Shown: positions 43,217 to 61,899, counted from the stretch's first letter. The stretch is DNA of 62,251 bases from Gammaproteobacteria bacterium (GCA_015488555.1 WFNO01000005.1:1-62251), one strand, 5' to 3'. A program made the numbers and translations. The notes: generated from the letters alone by a model not told the origin.

Positions 43217-43750
43217 TCATTCCTGATCGGGCTCACCCCGCCGGCGCGCGCGATTGCGCAACACCAGGCTTTCCTCCCAACGCCGCAATAGCAACAGGCG
43301 TTCACCTCCACGGTCCTCGCTACACCGGGGACAGGTCAGGTAGGCGAGATACAATTCCTTTGGCATGCGCCCGCTGTCGATCAGCTCCCTCTGCATGTCC
43401 CGGATCACGTTGCGAGCGGTGCTGATGTTGCCGTGATGCAGGTGGGCCCGCAGGTGAAACGGCGAGGGCAGGTGCCGCACCTGGGTGGAGAGGGAATGTG
43501 TATCTTCGTGCAGCAGGCGCAGCATTCGCCCCCGCAACATGCCCGTCGAGAAGAGCACCAACCCCGGCCAGCGTTCCGCAAGCTGGAGCTTGATCAAGGC
43601 CTCCTGCTGTTTTTTGAGATAGGCCTCAAAGGCCAGGGGCATGTGCAGAAACATGGGTACGGACAATTCGTGCACCACGCTCCCACCCAAATCCACGTCT
43701 TCGTCCCGCCACGGGGGATATTCCCCGGGACAACCACATTCAAGTATCAT
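43217..43750 (-). CDS. Hypothetical protein with N-terminal CxC and C-terminal CxxC (possible GyrI-like fold)
   Basis: MILECGCPGEYPPW...LYLAYLTCPRC; start overlaps the stop of the upstream CcoN-fragment gene. Confidence 0.7.
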   Translation of the reverse strand: MILECGCPGEYPPWRDEDVDLGGSVVHELSVPMFLHMPLAFEAYLKKQQEALIKLQLAERWPGLVLFSTGMLRGRMLRLLHEDTHSLSTQVRHLPSPFHLRAHLHHGNISTARNVIRDMQRELIDSGRMPKELYLAYLTCPRCSEDRGGERLLLLRRWEESLVLRNRARRRGEPDQE

Positions 43751-44267
43751 GGCGACGCGTAGAAAAGATGGCCCTTGCGGTGAGAAAGACGTTGGCGAAA
43801 AAGACCCAGAAACCGATCCCCATGACCGTGGAAACGGAGGCGATGATAGGACTGTAGATGCTGTGCAACGCTGCAATCTCCTCGTGGTCACCAGCCAACA
43901 GGGCCTGACCCTTGAGGATGCCAAAGACCATCAGCGTGGTATAGAAGCCCGTCACTCCCAGCGCCGTCCACCAGAAGGAATGGTTGAGCAGGCGCACGGA
44001 ATAGACAGGGCGACCGCTGATGGCCTGGAACAAGTAATATGTCACCGCCATGCACAATAGCACCACCCCGCCCACCACGTTGATGTGGGCGTGGGCTAAG
44101 GGATCGATCATGTGGCCGGGCCCGCCATAGGGACTGCCAATGGAATCCAGCCAGGCCCGCACCGGCGGCAGCACCTGGACCACGCCATGTACCGTACCCA
44201 CGAAAAAGAAAAAAGGAGATGCTACCAGAAATTTCAGTAATTCTCGTTGAACCAATCTGTCCCCCAT
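43740..44267 (-). CDS. Stand-alone 4-TM protein homologous to the C-terminal helices of cbb3 oxidase subunit I
   Basis: AHAHINVVGG...YYLFQAISGRPVYSVRLLNHSFWW aligns by eye with AHAHLALLG...YFGLQQMLRRKLYSLALANFHYW of CcoN at 58743-60152. Confidence 0.8.
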   Translation of the reverse strand: MGDRLVQRELLKFLVASPFFFFVGTVHGVVQVLPPVRAWLDSIGSPYGGPGHMIDPLAHAHINVVGGVVLLCMAVTYYLFQAISGRPVYSVRLLNHSFWWTALGVTGFYTTLMVFGILKGQALLAGDHEEIAALHSIYSPIIASVSTVMGIGFWVFFANVFLTARAIFSTRRHDT

Positions 44268-44561
44268 CCTCGCTCCCGTCGATTTTTACTGACACACAAC
44301 CTTCGCCCTCCCCTGGCCCCCTGGCCGCCCCAGACAAGCTCCGAACTCAAACAAACCACTAAAATAGTCAAATTTTTGATTTTACTAAAACCTCTATCCC
44401 CAGCACAACTCTGGAAAAAACCACCGAACCGCACTCTTTGTCCGCTCCGAAGCCGCCTTGACCTGCGTGCAAACATGTGCAAAACTTCGATAGAGTTTGG
44501 GGGATGGTGTCGGCTGCCACCATCGTTCTTGAGAATAAAAATATCCGCAGGAGGAGGGAAC

Positions 44562-44675
44562 ATGGCTGGAAATTCCACCAATATCAACAAGTTCGACGGT
44601 TTTATCTGCATCGCGATGGCCGTTATCTGGTTTTTTCTGTTGTATGTCGCTTCGGCCCTGGCCCTGAAGGCCTGA
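44562..44675 (+). CDS. 37-aa single-TM microprotein (MAGNSTNINKFDGFICIAMAVIWFFLLYVASALALKA)
   Basis: AGGAGGAGGG RBS, one hydrophobic helix, followed by a terminator. Confidence 0.65.
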   Translation: MAGNSTNINKFDGFICIAMAVIWFFLLYVASALALKA

Positions 44676-44735
44676 AATCCGGGTACGATTTCTGGAAAGG
44701 CTTCGCGTCGGCGAGGTCGTTCTTACAATTTTTAT

Positions 44736-44768
44736 AAAAAAGGCCAGGTTCGTGCACTGGCCTTTTTT
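44736..44768. terminator. Bidirectional intrinsic terminator
   Basis: aaaaaaggccag-gttcgtgca-ctggcctttttt. Confidence 0.8.
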
Positions 44769-44908
44769 CATTCCTGTGGCTGCCGTTGCAGCACTGAGGT
44801 TTTTTCTTATAACATTGTCGTGCTGTAGGTTTTTAGCGCCCACCTCCCTGACAAAAGAGAAGGACACCGGCACTCCTGCCCTTGTGGCGCCCAAGGAAAC
44901 GGTCACAT

Positions 44909-45928
44909 ATGGCCCGCCATAAACATATGGTACACGAGCAGTCCTTTCGTGCCCTCCTGCTGTGGCTGGGCTGGGCGGCCACGGCCATCGCAGTCTATTT
45001 CATTCTCTATCTGGACACCAATCTATGGCAATTCATGAAACAGGACCCCAGCCGCATCACGTGGGTAATCATGGGGCTGTTTCTCATGGGGCTGGCCATC
45101 AGTTTCGCTCTCACCATCTCCATTACCAACGAGGCCATCCAGGCAGTGCGTCTGGGCAATATTGCCAAGCAGACCAGCCTGCCCGGCATCAATCCCGAGG
45201 ACGACCGTCATGCCGTGCAGCGTTTCTTCATTGCCCTCAAGGAGGTGCTGTCCAAGAACGGCCAACCCGATATCGAATCTCTCATCGAAGTGGAATTGGC
45301 GGACTATCATCGCAAGAGCCATGCAGTGGAGGTCATCGGTAACCTGCTCATCACCTTGGGGCTCATCGGCACGGTAATCGGACTCACGCTCACCCTGTCT
45401 GGCTTGACCACCTCGCTGGACGCTCTGGGCGAGGACCAACAGCGACTGTTGAGTGGCCTGCGCCGGGCCATGGGTGGCATGGGTACGGCCTTCTATACCA
45501 CCCTACTGGGCTCCATTCTCGGGGGAGTCATCCTGCGCGTGTTCGCACTCATAACCGACGGTGGTATCCAGAATCTCTCAGATACCCTAAAGAAGATCTG
45601 TATGGTGTACTGCGCCTCAGACTGCAAACCCACTATGGAACGCGACATCCGCGCTCTGAATCACGAAATCGAACACCTGGGGGCCAACGTCGCCACCCTG
45701 CGCCAGGCTATCGATGAAACCACTGCAGCCATGCAACAATTCCACAAAGAAGCCAAACAACTCAACCAGATCAATGATTCAGAGGACCGGAACAAGACCC
45801 TTAGGGATGCCGTAGTCCTGCAAATGTATTACACGGACCTTCTGAAGAAGGAGATTCAGATGATCAACAAGGTCAATCGCTCTTGGTGGGGGAGACTGCG
45901 CCGCGCTCTACGCGCCGGCCGCCATTGA
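44909..45928 (+). CDS. MotA/TolQ/ExbB proton-channel family protein with coiled-coil tail
   Basis: LGLIGTVIGL and GMGTAFYTTLLG channel motifs; two extra N-terminal TM helices. Confidence 0.85.
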   Translation: MARHKHMVHEQSFRALLLWLGWAATAIAVYFILYLDTNLWQFMKQDPSRITWVIMGLFLMGLAISFALTISITNEAIQAVRLGNIAKQTSLPGINPEDDRHAVQRFFIALKEVLSKNGQPDIESLIEVELADYHRKSHAVEVIGNLLITLGLIGTVIGLTLTLSGLTTSLDALGEDQQRLLSGLRRAMGGMGTAFYTTLLGSILGGVILRVFALITDGGIQNLSDTLKKICMVYCASDCKPTMERDIRALNHEIEHLGANVATLRQAIDETTAAMQQFHKEAKQLNQINDSEDRNKTLRDAVVLQMYYTDLLKKEIQMINKVNRSWWGRLRRALRAGRH

Positions 45929-45980
45929 TCCCCCCTCGCACTTCTCTTCTAGAGACATGTCATGAAGGAGGAAGCTGACC

Positions 45981-46748
45981 ATGGCCAAATTTCGTAAATC
46001 GGCTTCCAATGTTCATGAGAGCTTCTCAGACGTGGCCTTGCTCATGCTGGCCACTTTCATCTTCCTTTTGGTGACCATCCTCATCACCACCCGCATCGCT
46101 GAAGAAAACGAATTGCCCAAGCTGCGCAAGCAGGTGGAGATGTTGCAAGAACAGTTGCAGCTTGCTGAATCTGACAAGGAGCGTCTAAAAAAGAATTTCA
46201 AGCGCGTCCTGATTACCGACCCAGATACCCAGCTAGAGACCATACTAGAGAGCGCCAACGTGGGACGCAAGGATTTCGAGATGTTCGTCAAGGGTTTGAA
46301 GGAGATCCCAGGCAAGGACCTGCATCTGGTGGTGGACGCCTCCGGTTCCATGCACGGAGTCTCCATGTTCTTGGTACCCATCTTGCGCCTCATCGTCATC
46401 CGCGCTGACAAGCACTTGAGCGCCATCACCTGGTTCTCGGACAGTCGCGCCAAGACCTATCAGGGCACCATGGGTGAGATGTTCGACAACCTCATGAGCG
46501 AGGCTCCCTTCGTGGGTAACCGGGAAACAATCGGCCGTGCCTTTCGCGTGGCGGCGCGTGAGGCTCCTCCGCCCGGAGCCTACTTGCTTGTCGGAGACGA
46601 ACCTTCAGACGACACTATTTATTACAGCGAGATCCCCAGCCCCGTTTTCACCTTACCCATGGGACGCTCGGACCCCGACACCGACAAAGAATACCGCACC
46701 CTGGCCCAGAAGACGGGCGGACGCATGCTGCACCTGACCTTTAGATGA
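45981..46748 (+). CDS. Membrane-anchored vWA-domain protein
   Basis: TM segment SFSDVALLML (ExbD/MotB-like Asp), coiled coil, MIDAS VVDASGSM, VGDEP, LAQKTGG. Confidence 0.8.
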   Translation: MAKFRKSASNVHESFSDVALLMLATFIFLLVTILITTRIAEENELPKLRKQVEMLQEQLQLAESDKERLKKNFKRVLITDPDTQLETILESANVGRKDFEMFVKGLKEIPGKDLHLVVDASGSMHGVSMFLVPILRLIVIRADKHLSAITWFSDSRAKTYQGTMGEMFDNLMSEAPFVGNRETIGRAFRVAAREAPPPGAYLLVGDEPSDDTIYYSEIPSPVFTLPMGRSDPDTDKEYRTLAQKTGGRMLHLTFR

Positions 46749-47442: not shown

Positions 47443-48759
47443 ATGAAAGGCAATACCTCCATCAAGGGCATTCCCATCACCGTACGGGCGCCCCGTCGTA
47501 CGCCTGCCAATCTCTCCACCTGGAGATTCTTCAGTCGGGCAGGCGGATTACTGCTCCTGATCCTTATCCCCCTGTCCGGAATCTTTCGGATCGACTTGTC
47601 CTCAGGGTTCGTCATCCTCAATCACCAGGTGTGGTTTGCTGACTTCTTCATCGTCTTCGGTTTTTGGCTGGCCGCCGCTTGCCTGCTCATTCTGCTCTAC
47701 TCCTCGCTGGGTACGGTGTTCTGCGGCTGGCTCTGTCCCCAGAACACGGCCTCCACCTGGGCCAACAAGGTCACTACCAAGCTGTTGGGTAAACGGGCCA
47801 TCATCAACTGGGGAGACGAAGGCACTGACGTACGAGTCTCCACGGGCAAGAACAAGCCGCTCAACTGGTTGATCCTATTTTTCAAGTTGCTAGCCATGGC
47901 CATGTTCCTGGCCTTGATCCCCTTGCTGTATTTCTTCCCTCCCGGGGCTATGTGGTCCTTTGTCACTTTCCAGGAGGACGAGCGTCTAGCGGGCTCTCTC
48001 TATTGGATCTACACCGTGTTCGTGTTCATCACCTTTGCCAACATCGCCGTGGTTCGCCACTACACCTGCCGGTACATGTGCATCTATCGCATGTGGCAAT
48101 TCCTATTCAAGACCCGGGATACACTGCACGTGGAATACGATGCCTCGCGTGGGGAGGAATGCCGCAAATGCAATTTCTGCGTCACCGCTTGCCCGGTAGG
48201 CATCGATCCGCGCCAGACCCTCACCTTCGACAGTTGTACCAACTGCGGAGAATGCATCACGGCCTGTGATCGATTACACCAGCACCGTGATGGCACCCCT
48301 GGGCTGTTACGCTTCCGCTTCGGTCAGCGCAAGGGCAAGCATCAGTTGTCCAATAGAGTCCCCCTGACCAGCCTCCTGGGACGCGCCTCTTGGGTGGCCC
48401 CGGTATTCATCCTGGCCCTGGGCATCCTGACTTGGGGCATCGTCCAGTACGAACCCTATCACCTGTCGGTGTTCCGGGCGGATTCCGCCGGCAGCGGCGG
48501 CAGGATCCTGGACTATCAGATCAATGTCGCCAACAAGACCTACGAACCCACCATCATAGAACTGCAGGTCGCTGGCCTGCCCGATGATCGCTATATCCTG
48601 GAACGCTCTACGGTGCATTTCGAAACCGCCACTCGCAAAGACGTGCGCCTGCACATCGATGGTGGACTGAACCCCGGTCTGTATCGCATCACCATCACTG
48701 CCCGAGCTGCCGGTAGTGATTGGGAAAAACGCTATAATATACAGCATTACGTTCCTTGA
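47443..48759 (+). CDS. ccoG: CcoG/FixG-family membrane polyferredoxin
   Basis: FCGWLCPQ, CRYMC, CRKCNFCVTACPVGID, CTNCGECITACD, and a C-terminal Ig-like domain. Confidence 0.88.
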   Translation: MKGNTSIKGIPITVRAPRRTPANLSTWRFFSRAGGLLLLILIPLSGIFRIDLSSGFVILNHQVWFADFFIVFGFWLAAACLLILLYSSLGTVFCGWLCPQNTASTWANKVTTKLLGKRAIINWGDEGTDVRVSTGKNKPLNWLILFFKLLAMAMFLALIPLLYFFPPGAMWSFVTFQEDERLAGSLYWIYTVFVFITFANIAVVRHYTCRYMCIYRMWQFLFKTRDTLHVEYDASRGEECRKCNFCVTACPVGIDPRQTLTFDSCTNCGECITACDRLHQHRDGTPGLLRFRFGQRKGKHQLSNRVPLTSLLGRASWVAPVFILALGILTWGIVQYEPYHLSVFRADSAGSGGRILDYQINVANKTYEPTIIELQVAGLPDDRYILERSTVHFETATRKDVRLHIDGGLNPGLYRITITARAAGSDWEKRYNIQHYVP

Positions 48760-48774: not shown

Positions 48775-49167
48775 ATGGTCAAGAAAGTCATCAAAGACGA
48801 TATCCCCTTGAAACCCGCCCAGGAAGTGAAATGGGGCGAGACCCCGAAAGACCACTTGGGTTACAAGAGCGAAGCGGACCGCATCGAACGCCGTGGCCTG
48901 GAAGACTGGGAAATGGTGGAAAAAATGTCCGAGCAATCGGACCACAAAATCCCTTACTGGTTCTTCGCCTTGTTCTTCATATTGCTGCTAGTGGCCACCG
49001 GATTAACCTTCCCCTTTTGGGGGGTGCGGCCTGGCTTTGAACGCCCCTGGTTCGACTGGGGCATTGTCGCCGGTGTGATCTGGGTGGTAAGTATGGCCGC
49101 CATCATCTATTACCTGGTCGACTATCGGCATCGGCGCAAGAACAAACGCGATTCCTCGTCGTCATGA
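48775..49167 (+). CDS. Hypothetical 2-TM membrane protein
   Basis: GGGAG RBS; two hydrophobic segments and a basic tail; follows ccoG closely. Confidence 0.75.
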   Translation: MVKKVIKDDIPLKPAQEVKWGETPKDHLGYKSEADRIERRGLEDWEMVEKMSEQSDHKIPYWFFALFFILLLVATGLTFPFWGVRPGFERPWFDWGIVAGVIWVVSMAAIIYYLVDYRHRRKNKRDSSSS

Positions 49168-49601
49168 GTAGAACCTCTCGCAGATACCGCCCTGCAACTA
49201 TCGGGTGGCTGACAAGTATGCCCCTGTTGTTTCTACTCGGCGCTTGCAGCAAGGATGACATACCGCGCTATCCCCCGCAAATCTGGGAAGATATCACCGT
49301 GGAGGTTGAAACCCGCCCTACGCGCATCACGCGCGGTATGATCGAATTCCTGGTAATTGCCACCCGCCCGCCGCGACGGCCGGCACACGATCTCATCGTC
49401 TCCTTTCGAATCAACGACGAGGGGAAATGGCACCAAGCCATTCAAGACGGCCACGTCGGAGTCTATCGACGTGCCATTTTTGTGAACGATCCTCAGCAAG
49501 ACGTATTGACAGTGAGACTCCAAAGAGATGATCGGGAGGGGATACTGTACTTTCCCTTACGTCAGGATGACCCCGCTATGTCCAGCGACCCATCTTCCTG
49601 A
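49164..49601 (+). CDS. Hypothetical lipoprotein
   Basis: Lipobox LGAC; ATGA overlap with the upstream gene. Confidence 0.7.
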   Translation: MSRTSRRYRPATIGWLTSMPLLFLLGACSKDDIPRYPPQIWEDITVEVETRPTRITRGMIEFLVIATRPPRRPAHDLIVSFRINDEGKWHQAIQDGHVGVYRRAIFVNDPQQDVLTVRLQRDDREGILYFPLRQDDPAMSSDPSS

Positions 49602-49654: not shown

Positions 49655-49732
49655 TCAGGCGGCTGCGAGAGGCAGCAGCACGAAGAAGAGCAAGGTCAGT
49701 GCCAACAAGATCCATAACAGTGTCGTGTTCAT
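49655..49732 (-). CDS. 25-aa hydrophobic microprotein (MNTTLLWILLALTLLFFVLLPLAAA)
   Basis: AAAGGAGGT RBS; similar to the 25-aa ORF at 61822-61899. Confidence 0.65.
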   Translation of the reverse strand: MNTTLLWILLALTLLFFVLLPLAAA

Positions 49733-50028: not shown

Positions 50029-50160
50029 ATGGTCGAAGATCTTGGTATCAATGTATTGGTGCCTATTCTGGTTTTCCTGATTCTGATTGTAGGTAGCATC
50101 ATGATCACCAACAAGGCGATTGAAGACGTAAATCGCCGCCGCAGCAGCGGGGAGTATTGA
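50029..50160 (+). CDS. 43-aa single-TM microprotein (MVEDLGINVLVPILVFLILIVGSIMITNKAIEDVNRRRSSGEY)
   Basis: AGGAGG RBS, one TM with a positive C-terminal flank, followed by a terminator. Confidence 0.7.
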   Translation: MVEDLGINVLVPILVFLILIVGSIMITNKAIEDVNRRRSSGEY

Positions 50161-50261: not shown

Positions 50262-52907
50262 TCAGGGCACTTCCAAAAATGGCGCAAGGGTCTGTAGACG
50301 CTGACGGTAACGCGCCACCGCTGGTGATTCAGGTTCACGTGCCAGCTCCATGCGCAACACTTCGCGCAGGGCCTGCACGTGATCGGGACGAATCTCCAGG
50401 ATCTTCTGTAGGACCTGCCAGCGGGTTTGTTCGTCCAAGGCCGGAAGGCTTGCATACAATCGGTCGGCTAGGCCGTATCCTACCCATCGATCGAGGGGAT
50501 TGGCCTCGTAAGCGAAACGTAACAAACGTTGAGCCTCCCCGTTCCGTCCCCGGATCGAAGCCAGCCAGCTACGCATAGCAAGTTCGGTGGCTACGTAGGC
50601 CCCTTCAAAATCCGGATGAGGATGCCCTTCGAATCCCAACAGGCGCCAGGCTGCCTCAGGTGTGGGCCGCTGCGCCAACAACCATTCGAGCATCCTCCCC
50701 AGATCCAGTGAGCCGCCATAGCGCAAGATCGGCAGGCTGAATTCGAGCTTCGGCGCCCACTCGTCTTGGACGGGTCCATCCGGCATCGGCAGCGGACCCC
50801 AGAAACGTCCCAGCCAGGTCCACATGCCCTCGCCCCCCGTAAGCGCCTTCCTTTGTGAAGCGGTGAGGCCCGCCATCCTCTCGACCGGATCGAAACGACC
50901 TGATTCCGGCGAGCGGGCATAGCCCACCAAAGCCAGACGCAACCCATCTGTATAAACCTGCACGGCAGGAAAAACCGCCTGGAAGCTGCGTATCACCGTC
51001 TGCAAGGCTGGTACGTCGAACTGATTGAGAGCCAACCACTGGATATAAAGACCGCCAGCGGCCAAGTGCGCGAGACCACGCTGAAACTGCTGCACCGACA
51101 ACAAGTGGCTACGGCCCACCAGATCCGGATGGAACAGGTCACCAACAATGACATCGTAGCGCTGCTCGCTCGCACGCAGGAAACGCCGTGCGTCGTCGTG
51201 GTGCACGGCGATACGCATACTCACCCCTTCATTGACCGGCTCGAACCAGAGGCGTGCTGCCCGAATGGAACCAGCGGACAATTCCACGGCAGAGGCCTCA
51301 AGTGCAGGAAAGTACACCACCGGCGAGGCAGTGATCCCCGTACCCAGCCCCAAAAATAAAACCCGCATGGGACGCGGATGGAGCAGCAACGCCAGGCGCC
51401 CTTGATTTTTCTGTACCTCGACGGCCGTGGGTTCAGAAGATGCGTCCATGCGGCGCAGATCCGACAACAGGATGCGTTGCCCCTCGTGGTCCTCCACTAC
51501 ATGGGTCACCGAGATCGCATCCTCATAGAGCATGAGATCGCGACTTCCTGCATGAGCTTCTGGCAACAACTCACTCACCGGAGGCAGGCGGATCAACGGC
51601 CAGGCCAAAATGAGAAACACAGGGAGCAATGACCAATAGCGCCGCTCTGATACCCAGACCATCCCCGCGACGAATAACAGGAGGGCGGCCAAACACAGGG
51701 TGGATGCAGTTCCCCACGCGGGAATGAATACAAAACCACACAACAGCGCACCCAGCCCGGCTCCTAATGCATTGGCTCCATAGAGCCAAGCCCCCGTCAC
51801 AGTACCGCCTGCAACATGGCGGGCCAACAAGGGCAACCAAGCCCCTAGTACCAGAGTCAGAGGCAAGGTCAACAGAGCGAGCGCTACGGTTTGCAGAAAC
51901 AAGCCTTGGGGCAGACTCTGAAAATGAGCGCCTTCCGCCCATGCCGCCAACATGGGCAGTCCCCACAGACTGAACAAAGCCGCTAGGGCCGCAAGCCAAG
52001 GGAAATGATGCAGTAGGCGAAGGGATAACCAGCGAGCGACAATACTGCCGATACCGATACCTACCAAAAATACGAACAGAATGATGGCCAATACGTATTC
52101 CGTTCGCAGCAAGACCATACCATAGAGACGACTCCAACCAATCTCCAGCATCAAAGCTGCTCCACCAATGACACCATAGGCCAGGAGTACGCGCCAGGCA
52201 GGTCGAGACGCCATCGGATCAGTCTCCATCGCCTCCTGCTCCCCTTGCGAAAGGGACTGGCGTCTAGCAAGCAATGCGAGTCCCAACGCCACCCCCAAAC
52301 CCACCAAGGCCACAGTCTGCATGGCAAGGGTCCACCCCAATGTCGGCAATAGCAAAAGCGGCAACAAGGCACCTGCAGCGCCGCCTGCCGTGTTGATCCC
52401 ATAGATCAGCGGCAGGGTCACGCTCGTCCCACGCAAGGCCTTGAGGACCAGCGGAAAACCCAGGCCCAGAGCAAGGGAAGGGAAAAACAACAGCAGGAAG
52501 GCCATAAGGGCTTGTATGGCATACCACACGGCCAGGGGCCATGCGGCTGCCAAATCTCCCAACAGGTGGTCGATGCCACTGAATAGCCAGGGCATGAGTA
52601 GCGCGAACAATGCCACCAGTCCTTCGAGTACAGCCAATACCAGGAGCGGTTGGCGTACCGTTGCAAACCAGCGTCCTCCCATCAGACTACCGGCACCCAG
52701 TCCGATCATGAAGGTGGCCAGGGTCATGACCACCCCAAAGCTGCTTACGCCGAACTGGATGGTAAGCATACGCACCCACAGAATCTCGTAAGCCAGGCCA
52801 GTGATTCCGGATAGGAAATAGACCCCCAGCACACCCCACGCCCAGATTTGACTACCCACTTGCGCACCACCGGTGTGGGCGGTCAGCGGCCTAGAATGCA
52901 GGGACAT
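50262..52907 (-). CDS. Fused multi-TM / spermidine-synthase-like SAM-binding protein
   Basis: SGITGLAYEILWVR and LIYGINTAGG duplicated membrane modules; RVLFLGLGTGIT, VEL, DARRFL, YDVIVGD; TPR-like tail. Confidence 0.85.
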   Translation of the reverse strand: MSLHSRPLTAHTGGAQVGSQIWAWGVLGVYFLSGITGLAYEILWVRMLTIQFGVSSFGVVMTLATFMIGLGAGSLMGGRWFATVRQPLLVLAVLEGLVALFALLMPWLFSGIDHLLGDLAAAWPLAVWYAIQALMAFLLLFFPSLALGLGFPLVLKALRGTSVTLPLIYGINTAGGAAGALLPLLLLPTLGWTLAMQTVALVGLGVALGLALLARRQSLSQGEQEAMETDPMASRPAWRVLLAYGVIGGAALMLEIGWSRLYGMVLLRTEYVLAIILFVFLVGIGIGSIVARWLSLRLLHHFPWLAALAALFSLWGLPMLAAWAEGAHFQSLPQGLFLQTVALALLTLPLTLVLGAWLPLLARHVAGGTVTGAWLYGANALGAGLGALLCGFVFIPAWGTASTLCLAALLLFVAGMVWVSERRYWSLLPVFLILAWPLIRLPPVSELLPEAHAGSRDLMLYEDAISVTHVVEDHEGQRILLSDLRRMDASSEPTAVEVQKNQGRLALLLHPRPMRVLFLGLGTGITASPVVYFPALEASAVELSAGSIRAARLWFEPVNEGVSMRIAVHHDDARRFLRASEQRYDVIVGDLFHPDLVGRSHLLSVQQFQRGLAHLAAGGLYIQWLALNQFDVPALQTVIRSFQAVFPAVQVYTDGLRLALVGYARSPESGRFDPVERMAGLTASQRKALTGGEGMWTWLGRFWGPLPMPDGPVQDEWAPKLEFSLPILRYGGSLDLGRMLEWLLAQRPTPEAAWRLLGFEGHPHPDFEGAYVATELAMRSWLASIRGRNGEAQRLLRFAYEANPLDRWVGYGLADRLYASLPALDEQTRWQVLQKILEIRPDHVQALREVLRMELAREPESPAVARYRQRLQTLAPFLEVP

Positions 52908-53385: not shown

Positions 53386-53648
53386 TCTTCTGGCGTCATT
53401 CTTTCCGCGGATTCCTCACCACCTTCGTTCTTATCTTGTTTCTTATTCGCACCCATGATGGCGAAGCGCCAATAGAGAATTGCCATCAACACGATGGGCA
53501 CCAGCACCATGGGCAACAGGAAGAGAAAAATTGCCCATGGGGTTTCGATGGTCACGTGCAGCCATCGATAACTATCCGCAGCCCACACCGTGCTGCTACC
53601 AGCCACGCAGCCCAGCAAGGCTATGACAAATTGCAATAATCTATTCAA
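53382..53648 (-). CDS. Hypothetical small membrane protein
   Basis: Signal-like N-terminus, ADSYRWLHVTIETPW, one long TM; a TTG start overlapping the upstream stop is inferred. Confidence 0.65.
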   Translation of the reverse strand: MNRLLQFVIALLGCVAGSSTVWAADSYRWLHVTIETPWAIFLFLLPMVLVPIVLMAILYWRFAIMGANKKQDKNEGGEESAERMTPEE

Positions 53649-54708: not shown

Positions 54709-54756
54709 GAGCAAACCCTCAAGCCATCCTCATCTCACCGCAATCTTACCGCAATC

Positions 54757-55236
54757 TCACCGGGCATCCTGTACGGCCTGGCGCTTGGCCTTTTTTCTGC
54801 GGCGCCGTTTGTGCAGCTGCCCCTCTCTGCCATAGGTACGCTTGACAACGACCTCTCCTACCACGCCCCCGATGGCGGCAAACTCTGCGGCCACGATAAC
54901 CACCAACAACCAATACCCCAACGGTAGCAGATCCGAGCCTGGGGGAGGGCCCTCCAGGTGTAATTGATAGTAACTGATCACACGTACGATCAGCGGCGAG
55001 AAATGTGCCAGGATCTTCCCTCCAAGACCATAGATCAAGGACACGACAATTCCGCCAAGAAACGGAACGAAGAACAGATCCACGATCCACAAGGGATGGA
55101 ATGTAGCGATACCGTAGAAAAGCTCCAATTTGACGCCCAGCAAGGTATCGCCCACATAAATCACGAGAGCGCCACAGGAGACGGCAATAGTCGCTACCCC
55201 CATATCCATCAACCGCTGCTTGAGCGCTTTATTCAT
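54757..55236 (-). CDS. Hypothetical multi-TM membrane protein
   Basis: Three to four hydrophobic segments and a strongly basic tail; overlaps the upstream cytochrome gene stop. Confidence 0.75.
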   Translation of the reverse strand: MNKALKQRLMDMGVATIAVSCGALVIYVGDTLLGVKLELFYGIATFHPLWIVDLFFVPFLGGIVVSLIYGLGGKILAHFSPLIVRVISYYQLHLEGPPPGSDLLPLGYWLLVVIVAAEFAAIGGVVGEVVVKRTYGREGQLHKRRRRKKAKRQAVQDAR

Positions 55237-55723
55237 CGCTCTTCGGCACGTAAGGCTTTCCCGTCAACTTTTCATATTCGGCCTTTCGGGTCTCTTCCAG
55301 ATACCAGTCTTCGACCTTCAGGCTTGCCAGATAGGCCGCCAGCAGACGTCGCTCCTTTTCTGGCAGATGCGCATACGAAGGCATGCGGTATTCTGGACGC
55401 AGCCGACTCGGCAAGATCGATTGCGGATTCTCTGCCGAAAGATAGCGATAAAACCACTCTTCGCTCCTCAATGAGCCGATTCCGTCCAGTGCCGGAGCCG
55501 GCACATTGGCCATCATGTTTCGTACCATCCACAGGGCATGACACTTGGAGCACTTGAGTCGCTTGTACAATGCCTCCGCTTCTCGTTTGAGTTCCGGAGA
55601 GGCCGTGGTGTAGAACGGGATGCCAGGATCCGGATCGGTAAATTCCTGATATCCCCGATAGACGAGCATGAAACCTACAACGACAGCAATGAAAATAAGC
55701 AGGTTTTTCTCACCCGCTTTCAT
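55229..55723 (-). CDS. Membrane-anchored monoheme cytochrome c, CcoO-like
   Basis: N-terminal TM, CSKCH, APALDGIGS, distal Met motif YRMPSY, LAAYLASLK. Confidence 0.85.
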   Translation of the reverse strand: MKAGEKNLLIFIAVVVGFMLVYRGYQEFTDPDPGIPFYTTASPELKREAEALYKRLKCSKCHALWMVRNMMANVPAPALDGIGSLRSEEWFYRYLSAENPQSILPSRLRPEYRMPSYAHLPEKERRLLAAYLASLKVEDWYLEETRKAEYEKLTGKPYVPKSDE

Positions 55724-56004
55724 TTGCGTCGTGCAGCATAACGCTCGGCCTTCCTCCGCAGGTATTCTTTGCGCAGCTCCTCTTGGTGTGCGATCACTTC
55801 TCTGCTCTTCTGGTACTCCTCCGGATCCATCTTGTCCTTATCGTTCTCATCGAACACCACGTATTTGATGTTCTCGTCGAACTGATCGTTCTTCGCCGCC
55901 CAGCGCAGCAGAAAAACAGCACCAATGAGGATGGCTGCTGCAGCCACCATCCAGACATAGATTGTCCAGCCGTCGGGCAGCGATTCAATGAATTCTTTCA
56001 TCAC
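55720..56004 (-). CDS. ccoS: cbb3 oxidase maturation protein CcoS/FixS-like, extended
   Basis: TM followed by WAAKNDQFDE, matching the WAxxxGQFDD signature. Confidence 0.75.
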   Translation of the reverse strand: MMKEFIESLPDGWTIYVWMVAAAAILIGAVFLLRWAAKNDQFDENIKYVVFDENDKDKMDPEEYQKSREVIAHQEELRKEYLRRKAERYAARRK

Positions 56005-56013: not shown

Positions 56014-56361
56014 CTAAACAAGATATCCTTCGATCAGCTGCAGCCAGCCGAATGCAACCGCAATGAAGAGGCCCATGATGATGGCACCGAACATGATTTT
56101 CTCGCCGCGCTTGAGGGCTTCCTCCTTACCACGCTTTGGCCAATAGACCCAAATGATATAGGCAAAAATGATCAGCGAGATGACCAGAAAAACGAAGATG
56201 CCTATACTGAATTTTCTCGAGCGCAGACTCTCGATGCTCAGATCGATACCTAAAACCGTAGTGTTCTGCGCCACTTCCACCAAGACGGGAAGAACACCGC
56301 CCGTCAACCAACCCAACAGTTGGGACAGCATGACTAACCAATCTTGCATATCAATCCACAT
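56014..56361 (-). CDS. Hypothetical membrane protein
   Basis: Two or three hydrophobic segments; first gene of the ccoS-containing operon. Confidence 0.7.
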   Translation of the reverse strand: MWIDMQDWLVMLSQLLGWLTGGVLPVLVEVAQNTTVLGIDLSIESLRSRKFSIGIFVFLVISLIIFAYIIWVYWPKRGKEEALKRGEKIMFGAIIMGLFIAVAFGWLQLIEGYLV

Positions 56362-56721: not shown

Positions 56722-56758
56722 AAAAAAATGCCGCTGACTCGTAAGAATCAGCGGCATT
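56722..56758 (-). terminator. Intrinsic terminator of the cco structural operon
   Basis: Minus strand reads aatgccgctgattc-ttac-gagtcagcggcattttttt. Confidence 0.85.
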
Positions 56759-56787
56759 CAAAGAGAGTTAAACTGCCTATTATCGTT

Positions 56788-56968: not shown

Positions 56969-57619
56969 TCAGGTGGCCTTGGACATATCAGGCTTCATCG
57001 TGTACGGCGGCAAGCGTTTGCACACGATGACCATAGCCAAGACAAAATAGGCTACGTAGAACAGGTCGATAGTAAAGCCCAGATCCCACCACGGCTGGAC
57101 ACGTTCGCGCAAGCCATCCGGGCGGAAACTACCTTCAAAGTTGGCCAAGACCACTTGGTCACCGACCACATTGTAGCTCTCCAGGCCGTAGGGTCCTCCC
57201 GCAGCGGCAATCTCCCGGATTTGAGGCGCGATCAGCTGCAGATCGAGCCAGTTGATGGGATGCCGGTCCAAAAGTCCGGGTAACCTGGAATCATCCATCG
57301 CTTCAAGAACTTCCATGGCGCGATCAGTTAGATAGGCGATCTTCTCCTCGGGAGTCGTCAAGCGTTGGACTTCTGGCGAATCCATCAGCTCCACCATGGG
57401 TGCATACAGCTGAGCTGTGGGGCGCTGCCCCCAGATGGGCATGGTGATCAAAAAGGCAGTCAGAATCACCAGGGCAATGAGCCAAGTCAGAGGATATGGC
57501 AAGCGGTTGTTACCTTCCCACAGACCGCCGTGTTTCTCCGACTCCCACTGTGAGATCATCTGCTTTACTTCCTCTTCATCGGAGAGCGTATAAAGAGGGT
57601 TGTCGAATTTCCATCCCAT
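56969..57619 (-). CDS. CcoP-N-terminus-like membrane protein lacking any CXXCH
   Basis: HGGLWEGNNRLPYPLTW resembles the CcoP/FixP DGIxExxNPLPxWW motif; two TMs; directly after ccoO; GGAGG RBS. Confidence 0.7.
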   Translation of the reverse strand: MGWKFDNPLYTLSDEEEVKQMISQWESEKHGGLWEGNNRLPYPLTWLIALVILTAFLITMPIWGQRPTAQLYAPMVELMDSPEVQRLTTPEEKIAYLTDRAMEVLEAMDDSRLPGLLDRHPINWLDLQLIAPQIREIAAAGGPYGLESYNVVGDQVVLANFEGSFRPDGLRERVQPWWDLGFTIDLFYVAYFVLAMVIVCKRLPPYTMKPDMSKAT

Positions 57620-57639
57620 TGTCTAATCCTCCGCTATTC

Positions 57640-58596
57640 TTATTTTAGGCTGGTGAGTATCCAGTCGATCAAAGCCCTGATTTCCGTATCCGGGGCATAT
57701 TCGGGCACCTCGGGCGGATAGGGACGCAACCCTCTCCGATACTCGTCATACTCCTTGCGCCACTTGGCGAAATCGATAGGGTTGCCGTTGGCGTCCACCT
57801 TACCCCATAGATAGTCGAAGCGTGGCATGATGGAATTGGGCTGCACCAACCGCGGATTGAAGAAGTGCAACATCATCCACTCGCGAGACGAGTTACGTGA
57901 GGCAACGTGCAAGAGGTCTGGAGCCTTGCGGTCCGAGCCAAAGACCGTTGGCATCTCACCATTCATGTCACCTACGTAAGGCGGCCAGCCAAACACTTGC
58001 CAGTCCTGAGTCTGCTCGGGCAACAGTGTGTGACACCACCAGCAACCTTCCGTGATGTACACGGTCTTCCCCTTGCCCACGTACTTGTGCTGGCTGTCAT
58101 CCGTGGAGTTGAGGATCAAATCAGGTGTCCATCCTCGGGTCACCGTAGCGTTTTCCACATAAGCCCACTCTTCACCATTTACGTCTGCATAATTAATGGT
58201 GAAGACAGCACCCTGAGCTTTATTGACTTGATCGATCTTCCCCTTGCTGATACTCAGGCTCTTGACGGTGGGACCCAGATTGTCGGGATGGTTAATCACC
58301 GCTGCGAAAGGCGTTCCCGGCTTGTAGACATAGACGCGTATAGCCGGATCGAACTCCTCACCCGTCTTTGGATCTTTGTCCAAGATGACGGTGATGGGCT
58401 TGCCTTCGCCACGCACCAGTGGATCTTCATAAGACCAACCAATCACGCGCCCATTGGACAAGGACTTGTCGAGCCCCACCCAGGTTGATTCAGCAGACCG
58501 GAAATCCCAGCTCGGCAGGAACAGCGTGATGGTCATGGAGAACCCCAGCATCAAGCCGACACCCGCCGATCCGAATTTATACGATTGAAATGCCAC
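57640..58596 (-). CDS. ccoO: cbb3-type cytochrome c oxidase subunit II, enlarged
   Basis: GKTVYITEGCWWCHT, FGSDRKAPDL, HFFNPR, SIMPRFDYL, ALIDWILTSLK. Confidence 0.92.
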   Translation of the reverse strand: MAFQSYKFGSAGVGLMLGFSMTITLFLPSWDFRSAESTWVGLDKSLSNGRVIGWSYEDPLVRGEGKPITVILDKDPKTGEEFDPAIRVYVYKPGTPFAAVINHPDNLGPTVKSLSISKGKIDQVNKAQGAVFTINYADVNGEEWAYVENATVTRGWTPDLILNSTDDSQHKYVGKGKTVYITEGCWWCHTLLPEQTQDWQVFGWPPYVGDMNGEMPTVFGSDRKAPDLLHVASRNSSREWMMLHFFNPRLVQPNSIMPRFDYLWGKVDANGNPIDFAKWRKEYDEYRRGLRPYPPEVPEYAPDTEIRALIDWILTSLK

Positions 58597-58742: not shown

Positions 58743-60152
58743 TTACCGCTCGTAGGCCAGCTCGTGGGCGTAACGGCCCTTGGGCACCACGGTTCCCTCG
58801 ACGGCCGTCATATACATGTTGTAGAGCCACACGAGATTACCGGTGAACACCATGGTGCCGCCAATCCAGCGGGCGATCATATACGGGTGCTCGGCCACCA
58901 CCACGTCGATGTACGGAACTTCGTAGATCTTGCCCGCACCCTGGATCAGACCCGCAATGGTCATAGAGATCCAGTAGATGCAGAAACCAATAATCACGAA
59001 CCAGTAGTGGAAATTGGCCAGAGCCAGCGAGTACAGCTTGCGGCGCAGCATTTGCTGCAAACCGAAGTACACGGCTGCGATTTCCAGGAAGCTCGACATA
59101 CCCAGTAGGGCCAAATGAGCGTGAGCCACGATCCAGCCGGTACCGTGCACGTACCAGTTGATGGCACGAGTCTGTTGGAACCCACCCTGCATGTTGAGCG
59201 GAATGGCCAGCAGCACACCGGTGACGCTGAACTTGATTTCCACATTCTCCACAAACATGCTCCAGCGCCCCTTCATGGTCAGCAGGATGTTGGCCACGAA
59301 GGCGATAGCGGGAATCAGGATCAGCACGCCTTCCACGGAGGCAAACGACTTCAACCACTCCGGCAGCGGAGCCGAGAGCAGATGATGAGAAGCCGGCGTG
59401 GAATAGAAGGCGATAATGGCCCAGAAGTGCAGATGGCCGATGCGGTGTGAGTACAGCGGATTGCCCGTGAGCTTGGGAATCGTGTAGTAAGCGATCGCCG
59501 CAGCTACTGGCGTGATCCACAGACCCAACACGTTATGTGCAAACCAGAAGGTGAGATAACCCTCGGTCAGCCCGGTGAGGTTGAACAGTTCCGCAGACTG
59601 CCCCACCAGGAACACCACCCATACCATGAAGATGCAGGCACCGAAGAACCAGTTGGTGATGTAGATCCCCTGCGTGCGACGGTGAGCGATGGTCATCCAT
59701 ACGTTAATGCCCAACGGCACCAGGACCCCGAACATGATTACCAGGTCGATGGGCCAAATCAGGTCCGAATATTCACGACCAGAGGTGAACCCCAGCCACA
59801 GCAAGAACAGACCCAGAGAGAGCCCCACGTTCCACAGAAAGGCCGTCCATAGACCCAGCTTTTCGGACCACAGCTTGGTGTTACCCAAAGCCGGTGTCAT
59901 GTACATCATAGTCATGGCAAAGGCCATGGAGATCCAGCCCAGAATCACGGCCAGCACGTGCACTTGGCGCATGTGCCCAAAAGCAAAAAGCTCGGTACCC
60001 GTCACGAAATCCGGGAACGCGAGCTTCGCAGCATTGAAGGAACCGAGACCCGTCCCGATAATGAACCAAAAAATGGAAGAGAATCCGAAATAGATTGTCG
60101 CTGTCCCTGGCGGGATATCCTCGTTCTTCGCCATTAAGTATTTAAACAGCAT
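58743..60152 (-). CDS. ccoN: cbb3-type cytochrome c oxidase subunit I
   Basis: Six His ligands: RQVH, WFAHNVLG, FYSTPASHH (with helix-VII Tyr), AHAH; also GREYSDL and YVHGTGW. Confidence 0.95.
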   Translation of the reverse strand: MLFKYLMAKNEDIPPGTATIYFGFSSIFWFIIGTGLGSFNAAKLAFPDFVTGTELFAFGHMRQVHVLAVILGWISMAFAMTMMYMTPALGNTKLWSEKLGLWTAFLWNVGLSLGLFLLWLGFTSGREYSDLIWPIDLVIMFGVLVPLGINVWMTIAHRRTQGIYITNWFFGACIFMVWVVFLVGQSAELFNLTGLTEGYLTFWFAHNVLGLWITPVAAAIAYYTIPKLTGNPLYSHRIGHLHFWAIIAFYSTPASHHLLSAPLPEWLKSFASVEGVLILIPAIAFVANILLTMKGRWSMFVENVEIKFSVTGVLLAIPLNMQGGFQQTRAINWYVHGTGWIVAHAHLALLGMSSFLEIAAVYFGLQQMLRRKLYSLALANFHYWFVIIGFCIYWISMTIAGLIQGAGKIYEVPYIDVVVAEHPYMIARWIGGTMVFTGNLVWLYNMYMTAVEGTVVPKGRYAHELAYER

Positions 60153-60212
60153 CCTTCCAGCCCTCCTAAAATCGATTTACGTTCATGTCTGCTTTCTTTG
60201 TTGGTCTTCTTC

Positions 60213-60305
60213 TCACTCAGACTGTTTGTTCAGCAGATACCAGGAAAACCACATGCTCGAAAATGCAAGGAGCACGCCGCACGCTGCTGCAAACGCTGCC
60301 AACAT
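60213..60305 (-). CDS. 30-aa single-TM microprotein (MLAAFAAACGVLLAFSSMWFSWYLLNKQSE)
   Basis: AGGGGGTG RBS; sits inside the operon immediately upstream of ccoN. Confidence 0.6.
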   Translation of the reverse strand: MLAAFAAACGVLLAFSSMWFSWYLLNKQSE

Positions 60306-60383
60306 CGTTCACCCCCTATTCAGTTGATTCTGTTTTCCAATGCCTTTGAGTAATCGGTGCCTCACCCAAATTTAGCTTGGTGA

Positions 60384-60674
60384 TCACCAGCCGGTATTGT
60401 CCCGTTGCATTTCGATCTCACCATGCTTCTTCAGCGCAGTGGCCACGATGATGGCAAAGGCAAGACCAAAAATGATCATCACCCAATCGATGAATCCGCT
60501 GAAAGTGGTGGGATCGAAGGCCTCAAGCCCCCAGCCACCCCAACTCTCGAAAGGACCACGGCCGATGGCACTCATCACCGCAGCGCCGAACACGCTACCG
60601 TTACCCATACCCACGGTGAAAGCCGGTATGAGAAGTACCCAGAAGAGATTACCTAGCGTGAGTTTGTTTTCCAT
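60384..60674 (-). CDS. Hypothetical 96-aa Gly-rich membrane protein heading the cco operon
   Basis: G-rich RBS; TVGMGNGSVFGAAV and a second TM. Confidence 0.75.
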   Translation of the reverse strand: MENKLTLGNLFWVLLIPAFTVGMGNGSVFGAAVMSAIGRGPFESWGGWGLEAFDPTTFSGFIDWVMIIFGLAFAIIVATALKKHGEIEMQRDNTGW

Positions 60675-61146
60675 ACTCCCCCCTTATTTTAGTTGTGATA
60701 AGGAACCTAGACAGCCTGGAACCATTGTTAGCGAGTCGTCCATCCTGCCCCTTCCGGCTCCTCGTGGGACTCAGAATCAGGAGTCGCTCAAGTCAGGCAT
60801 CACTCACTGAGAGACCACCCGCATGACCTTGGATTATAGACCCAATTCCAGATTTTGCAACCACTCTACGAGCGATTCAGAACGCTTATTTGCCCCTTTC
60901 CCCCTCCCTGAACTACCCCCCACCAAGGAGGAATCTCACAAAAAATTCCAATATATCTGTAGGTTAGCGCTACTTCCCACTATTTATCTCGCCTGTTATC
61001 GCTTGCCGCGATCTCTTCATAAAACCGTTTTTCGTGCAACAATTCCAACAATCAAATGCAGGGGTTATAGATAGTTTGCTTTCATCCCTGTAGCAGATAT
61101 CTTAGTAACCGGTGATGTGAACTTGTATCGCAACGAGGAGAATCCT

Positions 61147-61416
61147 GTGAACGGCAAGGAAATCATCATTTACGGAATTGTGGCCATCAGCTCCCTGACT
61201 TTGCTGGCCTATACGGTTCACATGTTCGTAGGTGGATTGGTGAGCGAGCGCACGGAAAACACCATTATGTGGACCGTGGTCGTTATCGGTGCGGTGGCCA
61301 TGGGCTTCATGGCACGCAGTATCGTACGCCGCCGTCGCCTACATCAGCTGTACATGCAACAACTGCAGGCAAGGGAGGAAAGGCAATCCCCTGAAGGAGA
61401 CAATGCAGAGCGATAA
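61147..61416 (+). CDS. Hypothetical 2-TM membrane protein, divergent from the cco operon
   Basis: GAGGAG RBS before GTG 61147; YTVHMFVGGLVS between two TMs; basic tail. Confidence 0.75.
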   Translation: MNGKEIIIYGIVAISSLTLLAYTVHMFVGGLVSERTENTIMWTVVVIGAVAMGFMARSIVRRRRLHQLYMQQLQAREERQSPEGDNAER

Positions 61417-61745
61417 AGCTACCCAACTTCATTCGCGAGCTTCATTTTCAAGATTCGCGACTTTGTTCGGGTTGCGGTTATGTACGCCATAATACGCCGG
61501 TACCGAAAGTATCGGTTACAGCTCGCAAGATATACACAGGCAAACGCGATACAGTATAGCAACATCGCATCTTGCGCGAGTGTTTCACAGGACATCTCGA
61601 ACTCACCCACTGAATCACTATTACCCATGCGGTGCACGGCGTCCTGCAACACACGGTACTCAAGACCCCGTGCATATTCGCCTGCATTTTACCCACGCGC
61701 GCTGGAACAACAGGAAAATCACGAATGATTGTTACCAGACGGCGC

Positions 61746-61781
61746 AAAAAAATCCCCGGCGACCCAAAGGAACGCCGGGGA
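61746..61781 (-). terminator. Intrinsic terminator
   Basis: Minus strand reads tccccggcgttcctttgggtcgccggggattttttt, downstream of the 25-aa ORF. Confidence 0.75.
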
Positions 61782-61821
61782 AGAAAAACCGATCCGATCA
61801 CTTGGATTCAGAACCCTGAGA

Positions 61822-61899
61822 TCAGATCGTCGCTGCGGGAAGAATAACGAAGATCAAGAACGCAAGCGCAAACAACAGCAACAAAACATTGATTTTCAT
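61822..61899 (-). CDS. 25-aa hydrophobic microprotein (MKINVLLLLFALAFLIFVILPAATI)
   Basis: GAGGAGG RBS, its own terminator, and similarity to 49655-49732. Confidence 0.65.
   Translation of the reverse strand: MKINVLLLLFALAFLIFVILPAATI

Follow-up and report, generated by a model that had tools for sequence, protein, structure and literature searches.

Which respiratory system is encoded by a block of about 19 kb that carries CcoN, the catalytic subunit of a cbb3-type cytochrome c oxidase, without a dihaem CcoP, a CcoH or a CcoI beside it, and that is otherwise filled with largely unnamed membrane proteins? The block occupies positions 43217-61899 of a stretch of 62,251 nucleotides from a Gammaproteobacteria bacterium (GCA_015488555.1, WFNO01000005.1:1-62251). 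This stretch, here called the window, makes up the entire contig C5 in an assembly of 2.35 Mb and 132 contigs whose completeness is estimated at 95 %. Judging from sequence comparison, the block probably represents most of a conserved, compositionally foreign island encoding a non-canonical ('distal'-type) cbb3 oxidase along with electron donors and maturation genes of its own, and is a homologue of 'cbb3-1/cbb3-2' of Candidatus Tenderia electrophaga. It is a genuine and conserved island of biological importance, which adds a new member to an island already described instead of founding a new kind of system. An earlier note on this DNA had called the complex largely uncharacterised, which is true of its biochemistry, whereas the conserved region itself is already in print for the Tenderiales and for iron oxidisers. 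New here are the link between contigs C121 and C5, the exclusion of an ExbB-like gene pair, the FixP_N ancestry and modelled docking of the haem-less protein p216, the insert in CcoO, and the pattern of a sole oxidase across the family.

The catalytic core and its CcoP-like partner

From open reading frame (ORF) picks and sequence reading we counted 24 plausible genes in the block, nearly all of them predicted membrane proteins and all with open frames. The gene set listed in the earlier note was recovered by ORFs, Pfam and NCBIfam, with the exception of one vWA label (see below). The structural genes and their immediate surroundings are given here; presence counts, here and below, refer to 47 loci of Gamma- and Betaproteobacteria with full 10-kb flanks, in which genes further out are undercounted.

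58743..60152 (-): CcoN, 469 amino acids, predicted catalytic subunit of a non-canonical ('distal'-type) C-family haem-copper oxidase (COX1)
57640..58596 (-): CcoO-like monohaem subunit, 318 amino acids, with a periplasmic insert of ~150 residues (FixO, E 6e-15)
56969..57619 (-): p216, candidate haem-less CcoP-like subunit; FixP_N-like anchor helix, helical periplasmic domain, C-terminal membrane helix
56788..56952 (-): p54, small single-helix membrane protein (ORF), the last gene ahead of the hairpin; found by tblastn in 23/47 loci
56726..56759 (-): terminator-like hairpin, 15-pair stem and T run, a consensus match only, splitting the structural from the accessory operon
60384..60674 (-): p96, two-helix membrane protein directly upstream of ccoN; 46/47 loci
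61117..61416 (+): p99, two-helix membrane protein divergent from p96-ccoN; 41/47 loci, on the opposite strand every time

CcoN matches the COX1 family (PF00115) over profile positions 3-436 of 436 (E 4.6e-73), that is, over the full length of the 12-helix fold, and aligns to residues 16-459 of the Pseudomonas stutzeri CcoN (3mk7_A; E 1.7e-62). Its residues H65, H206, Y250, H256, H257, H344 and H346 correspond to H60, H207, Y251, H257, H258, H345 and H347 of 3mk7_A, which we take to be, in that structure, the haem b and CuB ligands, the cross-link Tyr and the haem b3/b ligands. The six His and the Tyr are invariant in all ten clade CcoN sequences compared, and Y250 occupies the C-family position of the cross-link Tyr on helix VII; the claim that CcoN had kept all its ligands was correct. 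In the CcoO-like subunit, the match to FixO is limited to profile positions 52-143, with CWWCH at residue 185 and M257, within an SIMP motif, kept in at least 90 % of 41 alignment rows. At the level of sequence, the O2-reducing centre of CcoN and the haem c site of CcoO are intact.

CcoO is indeed enlarged, as had been noticed earlier. The haem domain (residues 175-270) aligns to solved CcoO chains at positions 55-154 and the rest of the protein has no PDB alignment; the insert of ~150 residues lies between the membrane helix and the haem domain and was modelled by AlphaFold with a predicted local distance difference test score (pLDDT) of 80-95. A PDB fold search with the whole CcoO model, in which the insert was not searched alone, returned no significant match, the best being CcoO itself (E 0.21).

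The heme-less CcoP-like protein of the earlier note is found in p216, which is present in 46/47 loci and contains no CXXCH, and whose orthologues match FixP_N in 13 of 25 cases at E<=0.1 (best 2.5e-5). A structure model of p216 (pLDDT 74) consists of two membrane helices flanking a helical periplasmic domain, with no significant fold match in the PDB (best E 1.6). When CcoN, CcoO and p216 were modelled as three chains, the complex scored 0.88 and the best of three controls 0.00; the mark of 0.88 was attained by 58 of 80 solved complexes and by 2 of 110 mismatched pairs. Furthermore, the runs shared at least 80 % of their contacts, the partner pLDDT was at least 79, and CcoN residues 223-291 were placed in contact with both p216 helices. 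The model thus supports, short of showing it, that p216 binds to CcoN/CcoO, and its pass may partly reflect likeness to CcoP-CcoN, because CcoP-CcoN complexes have already been solved. The p216 family comprises 1830 proteins; among the 120 listed, none carries a Pfam domain and the displayed names read 'hypothetical protein'. The small p96 upstream of ccoN conserves M23, M34, M66 and H84.

Conservation, genomic setting and other oxidases

A pattern scan over 185,579 species, each represented by a single genome, yielded 424 matched stretches, 381 of which encode a relative, and the best 80 were kept. In relatives, the genes follow one another in a recurrent order. A dihaem and a monohaem cytochrome, a truncated CcoN (copy b), a thioredoxin-like protein, p155 and, on the opposite strand, p99 precede p96, CcoN, CcoO, p216 and, in some, p54. 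There follow a FixQ-like and a CcoS-like gene, the cytochrome cyt164, p159, an FGE-fold protein, p118, p154 and an MFS fusion, and then a CcoG-like gene, p130 and a lipoprotein, with a second truncated CcoN (copy a) and a PF20603 protein further on. Each gene from CcoO through the MFS fusion occurs in 43-46 of the 47 loci, except p54 (23/47). The co-occurrence that the earlier note had proposed was borne out by this cluster-level synteny search, with the core genes in 38-47 of the 47 loci and in the same order.

The CcoN proteins of this clade are 73-96 % identical across classes. In a database of 1.84 billion representatives clustered at 50 % identity, the clade is reduced to a single full-length representative (81 % identical), with fragments and one partial match (57 % over residues 10-336) beside it, and the next full-length representative beyond it is 39 % identical. 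A tree of 76 rows was built from 8 clade sequences, the canonical CcoN of a Sideroxydans metagenome-assembled genome (MAG), a fused form, and 66 representatives of 440-560 amino acids drawn from the top 150 matches, with shorter, longer and fragmentary matches excluded. In this tree, which is unrooted and whose sample is biased to relatives of the query, the clade forms one branch (SH-aLRT 100) with a long stem (0.79) and short internal branches, and the canonical group stands apart with a support of 100. The CcoN does not group with canonical enzymes, in line with the earlier note.

Among 24 other genomes of the same family, 19 carry a clade CcoN at an identity of at least 76 %, and none was found in 16 genomes from other families of the same class. 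The occurrence in iron-oxidiser lineages, which the earlier note had mentioned, agrees with the relatives found in Gallionella and Sideroxydans MAGs and in Mariprofundales/Zetaproteobacteria. The proximity to cyc2 that it had mentioned along with this was not borne out here; the one Cyc2-like candidate found in the genome lies on another contig.

This candidate, the only one from a motif scan of the genome (C85:4827-6347), has 506 amino acids, a signal peptide, a single CALCH at residue 46 and Phe as its last residue. It resembles a fused cytochrome-porin; it has no NCBIfam match, its nearest Atlas clusters are unnamed or partly Porin_O_P, and it could not be confirmed as Cyc2. A linkage of cyc2 to the island was rejected on these grounds.

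The genome contains one full-length COX1 and one FixO gene. In this 95%-complete assembly, neither a cytochrome bd subunit I nor any match to CcoH/FixH (PF05751) was found, and of nine matches to CcoP (TIGR00782) none passed the cut-off (best 51.6 bits against 179.95). The earlier proposition that neither ccoH nor a canonical ccoP is supplied from elsewhere in the genome is upheld by these searches. The absence of CcoI stands for the island, which has no CcoI-type Cu-ATPase, and not for the genome, where a copper P-type ATPase (619 bits) is encoded on contig C31 without linkage to the island. The clade enzyme is therefore apparently the sole terminal oxidase of this genome. We also surveyed COX1 (counted at E<=1e-20) and bd oxidases in 16 genomes of the family, the present one included. 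The clade CcoN is the only COX1, with no bd found, in 7 of them, and an eighth has a partial copy; three others have bd in addition, and in one more there is a fused second COX1. The remaining four lack the clade CcoN, and one of these has bd. Five carriers were reached via the loci, and a canonical CcoN was found in addition in just one of them, the Sideroxydans MAG.

Some carriers (two genomes, for instance) harbour a second, fused CcoN-CcoO-type gene with a frame of ~1000 amino acids, which belongs to another non-canonical CcoN group.

The guanine-plus-cytosine (GC) content of positions 43217-61899 is 0.545, compared with 0.637 for the genome, and all 188 genome windows of equal length lie above it; the visibly lower GC mentioned in the earlier note is therefore genuine. 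A second piece of similar composition (GC 0.542) lies on contig C121. On it, truncated CcoN b comes after a dihaem and a monohaem cytochrome and before a small membrane protein and a thioredoxin-like lipoprotein, genes which in 38-47 of the 47 loci stand directly upstream of p99-p96-ccoN. At its end, C121 holds the C-terminal fragment of a transposase of the Mutator family (IS256 type; C121:23939-24339), which adjoins the last ~38 codons of a CBS-domain gene; in a relative of the same genus, this CBS-domain gene is whole (196 amino acids) and lies between the two island pieces. The window ends in a repeat as well:

62101..62251 (no strand): 151-base repeat with copies on C32 and C25, marking an assembly break inside the island

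From the gene order of relatives, the like GC, the transposase fragment, the end repeat and the tail of the CBS-domain gene, we infer that C121 and C5 are one island broken by the insertion of an insertion sequence (IS), with the junction unassembled.

The dihaem protein of C121 belongs to the cytochrome c4 family (E 1.8e-22), and one of the c4 chains that it matches sits in PDB entries 8smr/8snh, which also contain a cbb3 oxidase; the monohaem protein resembles haem domains of alternative complex III subunits (E 1.1e-7). Two earlier statements have to be qualified accordingly. No CcoP passes the cut-off anywhere in the genome, but a dihaem cytochrome, of the c4 type, does belong to the island; and the electron-entry route would be less exotic than implied, since this donor class is found with cbb3 in the PDB.

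At the left edge of the island, a membrane protein of the PsiE (phosphate-starvation-inducible) family is encoded (C121:17724-18206; 8/47 loci).

Accessory genes and neighbours

Downstream of the hairpin, an accessory operon extends from the FixQ-like gene to the MFS fusion; the CcoG block, a truncated CcoN and an ExbB-like pair occupy the remainder of the block.

56014..56361 (-): three-helix membrane protein with faint FixQ likeness (E 0.0078, below cut-off); 43/47 loci
55720..56004 (-): CcoS (FixS)-like putative maturation protein with a charged C-terminal tail (FixS, E 3e-4)
55229..55723 (-): cyt164, membrane-anchored monohaem cytochrome c (Cytochrome_CBB3, E 7.5e-5); 46/47 loci
54757..55236 (-): p159, three-helix membrane protein with no family in Pfam/NCBIfam scans; 43/47 loci
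53641..54714 (-): membrane-anchored FGE-sulfatase-fold protein (PF03781, E 2.4e-58); 46/47 loci
53382..53738 (-): p118, small membrane protein, start codon uncertain; 44/47 loci
52921..53385 (-): p154, three-helix membrane protein with conserved His/Met within helices; 45/47 loci
50262..52907 (-): fusion of an MFS-like membrane domain, a spermidine-synthase-like domain and a C-terminal helical region, 881 amino acids (NF037959)
50029..50160 (+): p43, conserved single-helix protein of 43 amino acids, convergent with the MFS fusion gene (tblastn E<=2e-6)
49655..49732 (-): p25, possible gene for a 25-amino-acid hydrophobic peptide behind an AAGGAGG box (sequence reading; weak positional matches, E 0.01-0.8)
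49164..49601 (+): p145, lipoprotein-like, after p130; 7/47 loci (flank-limited count)
48775..49167 (+): p130, two-helix membrane protein accompanying the CcoG-like gene; 25/47 loci (flank-limited count)
47443..48759 (+): CcoG-like polyferredoxin membrane protein (TIGR02745, E 1.2e-36; 127 bits, cut-off of 317 not reached)
44882..46748 (+): MotA/ExbB-like gene (44882-45928; MotA_ExbB, E 3.6e-9) and a 255-amino-acid membrane protein, p255 (45981-46748)
43740..44267 (-): truncated CcoN copy a, free-standing four-helix unit equivalent to CcoN helices IX-XII (COX1 positions 308-413, E 4.7e-10)
43217..43750 (-): PF20603 'Bact_hydrolase' protein overlapping the end of truncated CcoN a (E 1.8e-9)

Several of these genes had been named in the earlier note, and most of the names can be kept in a weakened or refined form. 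Its CcoS is CcoS-like: the window protein reaches 20.9 bits on FixS (cut-off 23.1), 20 of 24 orthologues match this family (best 1.3e-5), and it is the sole FixS match in the genome. What had been called a second CcoO-like cytochrome corresponds to the monohaem cyt164, with CSKCH at residue 58, an N-terminal helix and no sequence match in the PDB. CcoG likewise proved CcoG-like; its two 4-Cys cluster motifs are conserved, as are two more pairs of Cys. Its block is inverted here, whereas in relatives the CcoG-like gene trails the MFS fusion co-directionally. The CcoN C-terminal mini-paralog is truncated CcoN a, which keeps the HxH motif and, in relatives, lies ~10-13 kb from ccoN on the same contig; the PF20603 protein trails it in two relative loci as well.

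A third truncated CcoN, 68 % identical to copy a, is encoded on contig C7 (11149-11667, -), away from oxidase genes.

The FGE-fold protein, which contains one Cys only, and the membrane/spermidine-synthase fusion (NF037959 at 82 bits, cut-off 40; Spermine_synth, E 1e-7; 46/47 loci) were both identified as had been described. Nothing useful linking MFS/spermidine-synthase fusions to oxidases appeared among the literature matches listed. In p154, the conserved residues are H129, H143, M100, M118 and M130. The start of p118 is uncertain because its ORF overlaps the end of the FGE gene. The short p43, missed by ORF length filters, occurs in 26/80 loci, each time just past the MFS fusion gene and on the opposite strand.

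The ExbB-like gene, in contrast, did not hold up as part of the system. The ExbB-like pair is near ccoN in only 4 family genomes, lies elsewhere or on another contig in the rest, and is present in 4 genomes without a clade CcoN; because it is rarely linked to ccoN and occurs without it, we regard the pair as a neighbour and not as a component. The vWA label given to p255 also falls, for no Pfam family matched at E<=0.01 and the only weak match was to ExbD (E 0.05). Just outside the block, a 674-amino-acid dynamin-family GTPase-like gene (41161-43185, +) was rejected as a part of the system, as it occurs in 0/47 loci.

Promoter-like sites were seen before p96 and before the FixQ-like gene and, with the hairpin after p54, this weakly suggests two transcription units. 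A search for RNA sequencing runs over positions 52900-60700 listed none. We took TTGAT-N4-ATCAA as the FNR/Anr-type consensus. The window contains two sites with one mismatch to it, against 1.05 expected, and the same scan found none upstream of ccoN; these sites were not accepted as a sign of FNR/Anr-type regulation. No Rfam family reached its gathering score in positions 41000-62251.

Interpretation, rival explanations and known systems

How might such a system work? Electrons would pass from periplasmic or membrane-tethered c-type cytochromes, for which the dihaem cytochrome c4-type protein of C121 and the anchored monohaem cyt164 are candidates, to the haem c of CcoO, and from there via haem b to the b3-CuB centre, where O2 would be reduced and a proton motive force built. 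In place of the canonical dihaem CcoP, p216 would keep the N-terminal anchor that packs on CcoN, joined to a haem-free helical domain, and two small proteins, p96 and p54, are likely to be further subunits. The second operon (FixQ-like, CcoS-like, cyt164, p159, FGE-fold, p118, p154 and MFS fusion), together with the CcoG-like protein, may insert the cofactors in place of CcoH and a linked CcoI, and the free-standing four-helix CcoN units probably bind a b haem via their HxH motif.

More tentatively, and with clearly less confidence than we place in the oxidase itself, the whole might be viewed as a distinct respiratory machine or 'alternative complex IV'. In such a machine, CcoNO, with p216 as a scaffold and an enlarged CcoO, would be fed by tethered c cytochromes and CcoN-repeat b-cytochromes and matured without CcoH/CcoI by the CcoG-like, CcoS-like and FGE-fold proteins, the MFS fusion and the thioredoxin-like lipoprotein. 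It would be spreading as a mobile low-GC unit among bacteria that use Fe(II), minerals or electrodes, in some of them as the only route to O2.

Several observations weigh against reading the block as a cbb3-type oxidase island of the 'distal' kind. CcoN scores 224.9 bits on the NCBIfam ccoN model (TIGR00780), short of the cut-off of 583.15, compared with 664.9 bits for the canonical CcoN of the Sideroxydans MAG, and its identity to canonical CcoN is only about 30-33 %. The window's copy of p216 gets no better than E 0.65 against FixP_N, which 12 of 25 orthologues fail to match at E<=0.1. The totals of promoter-like and terminator-like sites do not exceed those of shuffled sequences. For the small membrane proteins, the MFS fusion and the FGE-fold protein, roles are proposed from gene neighbourhood alone, and a 95%-complete genome could still hide another oxidase. 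Finally, the island clade is most likely the 'distal' cbb3 of iron oxidisers, with ES-1 and PV-1 compared by description only; that 'complex IV-2' of Ca. Tenderia and the 'distal' enzyme of ES-1 are exactly this clade is likewise inferred from descriptions.

Could the block nevertheless be partitioned differently? It might be that only p96-ccoN-ccoO-p216-p54 is the oxidase, and that the accessory operon, the CcoG block and the truncated-CcoN modules are separate membrane systems travelling on a mobile island. The strong terminator-like hairpin after p54 and the promoter-like site before the next gene would suit such a division, and so would the inverted CcoG block, the variation of the distal part of the island among relatives, the foreign GC with IS elements at the break, and an FGE-fold protein and an MFS fusion without a known oxidase-assembly role. 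We nonetheless think it unlikely, as the accessory genes follow right behind the structural genes in a fixed order in 43-46 of the 47 loci and in two classes, the accessory operon holds the only CcoS-like gene of the genome along with a cbb3-type cytochrome c domain, and a CcoG-like gene follows in Betaproteobacteria and in other Gammaproteobacteria. The view that the island is a newly gained passenger, without function or in decay, is very hard to credit: the low GC, the IS elements at the break and the truncation of the neighbouring CBS-domain gene might hint at it, yet the frames are open throughout, CcoN is 73-96 % identical across classes with short branches within the clade, and no other oxidase was found in the genome.

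A different reaction would have to be considered if the enzyme mainly reduced or detoxified nitric oxide (NO), or served O2 and NO alike, instead of conserving energy from O2 respiration. Canonical cbb3 oxidases show some NO reductase activity. The genome encodes a NirK-like multicopper protein (C77:5808-7105, +; 172 bits, cut-off 296) whose 491-amino-acid frame includes a cytochrome c domain, and no second COX1-family gene that could be NorB was found in it. This role appears improbable, however, as the C-family cross-link Tyr and all CuB His are kept, the partner subunit is CcoO-like, nirS and narG (as well as NorB) were not found in the genome, and the enzyme is the sole oxidase candidate found in several relatives. 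Furthermore, the lineages are described as microaerophilic lithotrophs in the available text of the Tenderiales and ES-1 papers. We thus retain an O2-reducing 'distal'-type cbb3 oxidase with its own donors and maturation genes as the probable function of the island.

For bacteria living on iron, minerals or electrodes, high-potential electrons have to reach O2 where very little of it is present. Their oxidase is assumed to be 'cbb3', yet the version that most of them carry has never been purified. The present genome and at least six relatives of its family appear to depend on the clade enzyme alone and would be natural test cases for its function, and experiments would find concrete targets in the accessory operon, the insert of CcoO and the CcoP-like subunit that lacks haem. 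For annotation, it would be wrong to credit these genomes with a standard ccoNOQP, and the p216 family merits a name.

The naming of proximal and distal cbb3 subtrees reportedly goes back, according to papers that cite it, to Ducluzeau et al. 2008. The two types have been distinguished in Zetaproteobacteria, Sideroxydans lithotrophicus ES-1 and Gallionellaceae (McAllister et al. 2020, PMC7029218; Zhou et al. 2022, PMC8788666; Hoover et al. 2023, PMC10734462). In ES-1, one of these papers reports the distal cbb3 as ~3-fold above the proximal one in expression and as upregulated on thiosulfate. As described there, the distal type is a ccoNO-only oxidase beside or in place of the canonical enzyme, which agrees with the island; its accessory genes go undescribed in the available text of these papers. 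In our data, the Sideroxydans MAG encodes one canonical CcoN (665 bits) and one clade CcoN, which is 79 % identical and has the same gene order. The CcoN of a Gallionella MAG is 79 % identical as well, and sequences named Mariprofundales/Zetaproteobacteria reach 74 %. A description of the cluster was not found in the accessible text of Emerson et al. 2013 (PMC3770913).

The closest described counterpart is the region of 30 genes, 26 of them conserved orthologues, around 'cbb3-1 and cbb3-2' of Ca. T. electrophaga (Eddie et al. 2022, bioRxiv 10.1101/2022.05.06.490989, Fig. 2B), which its authors termed 'a sort of alternative complex IV' and noted as previously seen in freshwater iron oxidisers. 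Among the literature matches listed for 'alternative complex IV' or 'truncated CcoN', this preprint was the only one that used them. In the available text, its listed gene order matches the island from the dihaem cytochrome to CcoG and includes the second truncated CcoN, provided that the 'serine threonine protein kinase' of that list is taken, by position, as the FGE-fold gene. The list opens with dihaem, monohaem, truncated CcoN, thioredoxin and unknowns; CcoN and CcoO come next, then three unknowns, a monohaem and an unknown ahead of the kinase entry, and behind it small single-helix proteins, CcoG and the second truncated CcoN. A Ca. Tenderia sp. MAG has the same order, with a CcoN 82 % identical to that of the window. 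The present island differs in being split by an IS over two contigs, in its inverted CcoG block and in the inserted ExbB-like pair. Furthermore, Ca. T. electrophaga is described as having a canonical ccoNOQP, whereas none was found in this genome. On the cathode, the canonical ccoNOPQ of Ca. Tenderia was lowly expressed and the non-canonical 'complex IV-2' was among the highest-expressed, according to the part of Eddie et al. 2017 (PMC5371394) that could be accessed.

For 'Ferrovum' JA12, only subunits I and II were reported, and co-localised c-type cytochromes were proposed as substitutes for subunit III (Ullrich et al. 2016, PMC4725956). By its locus tags, the spacing of one of these cytochromes fits cyt164, a comparison made by description only, and a haem-less CcoP-like protein goes unmentioned in the available text. 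The NorB/NorC pair of cNOR differs from the island, in which CcoN has the cross-link Tyr and its partner matches FixO/CcoO and not NorC. With the canonical CcoNOQP and ccoGHIS (P. stutzeri 3MK7/5DJQ; Rhodobacter capsulatus 6XKW), the island shares the CcoN fold and its metal ligands, the CcoO haem domain, a CcoP-type anchor, and CcoS-like and CcoG-like genes. It departs from them in a CcoN of only ~30-33 % identity, in dispensing with a dihaem CcoP, CcoH and a linked Cu-ATPase, and in adding some ten membrane proteins, the fusion of MFS and spermidine-synthase domains, a protein of the FGE fold and, within CcoO, an insert of 150 residues.

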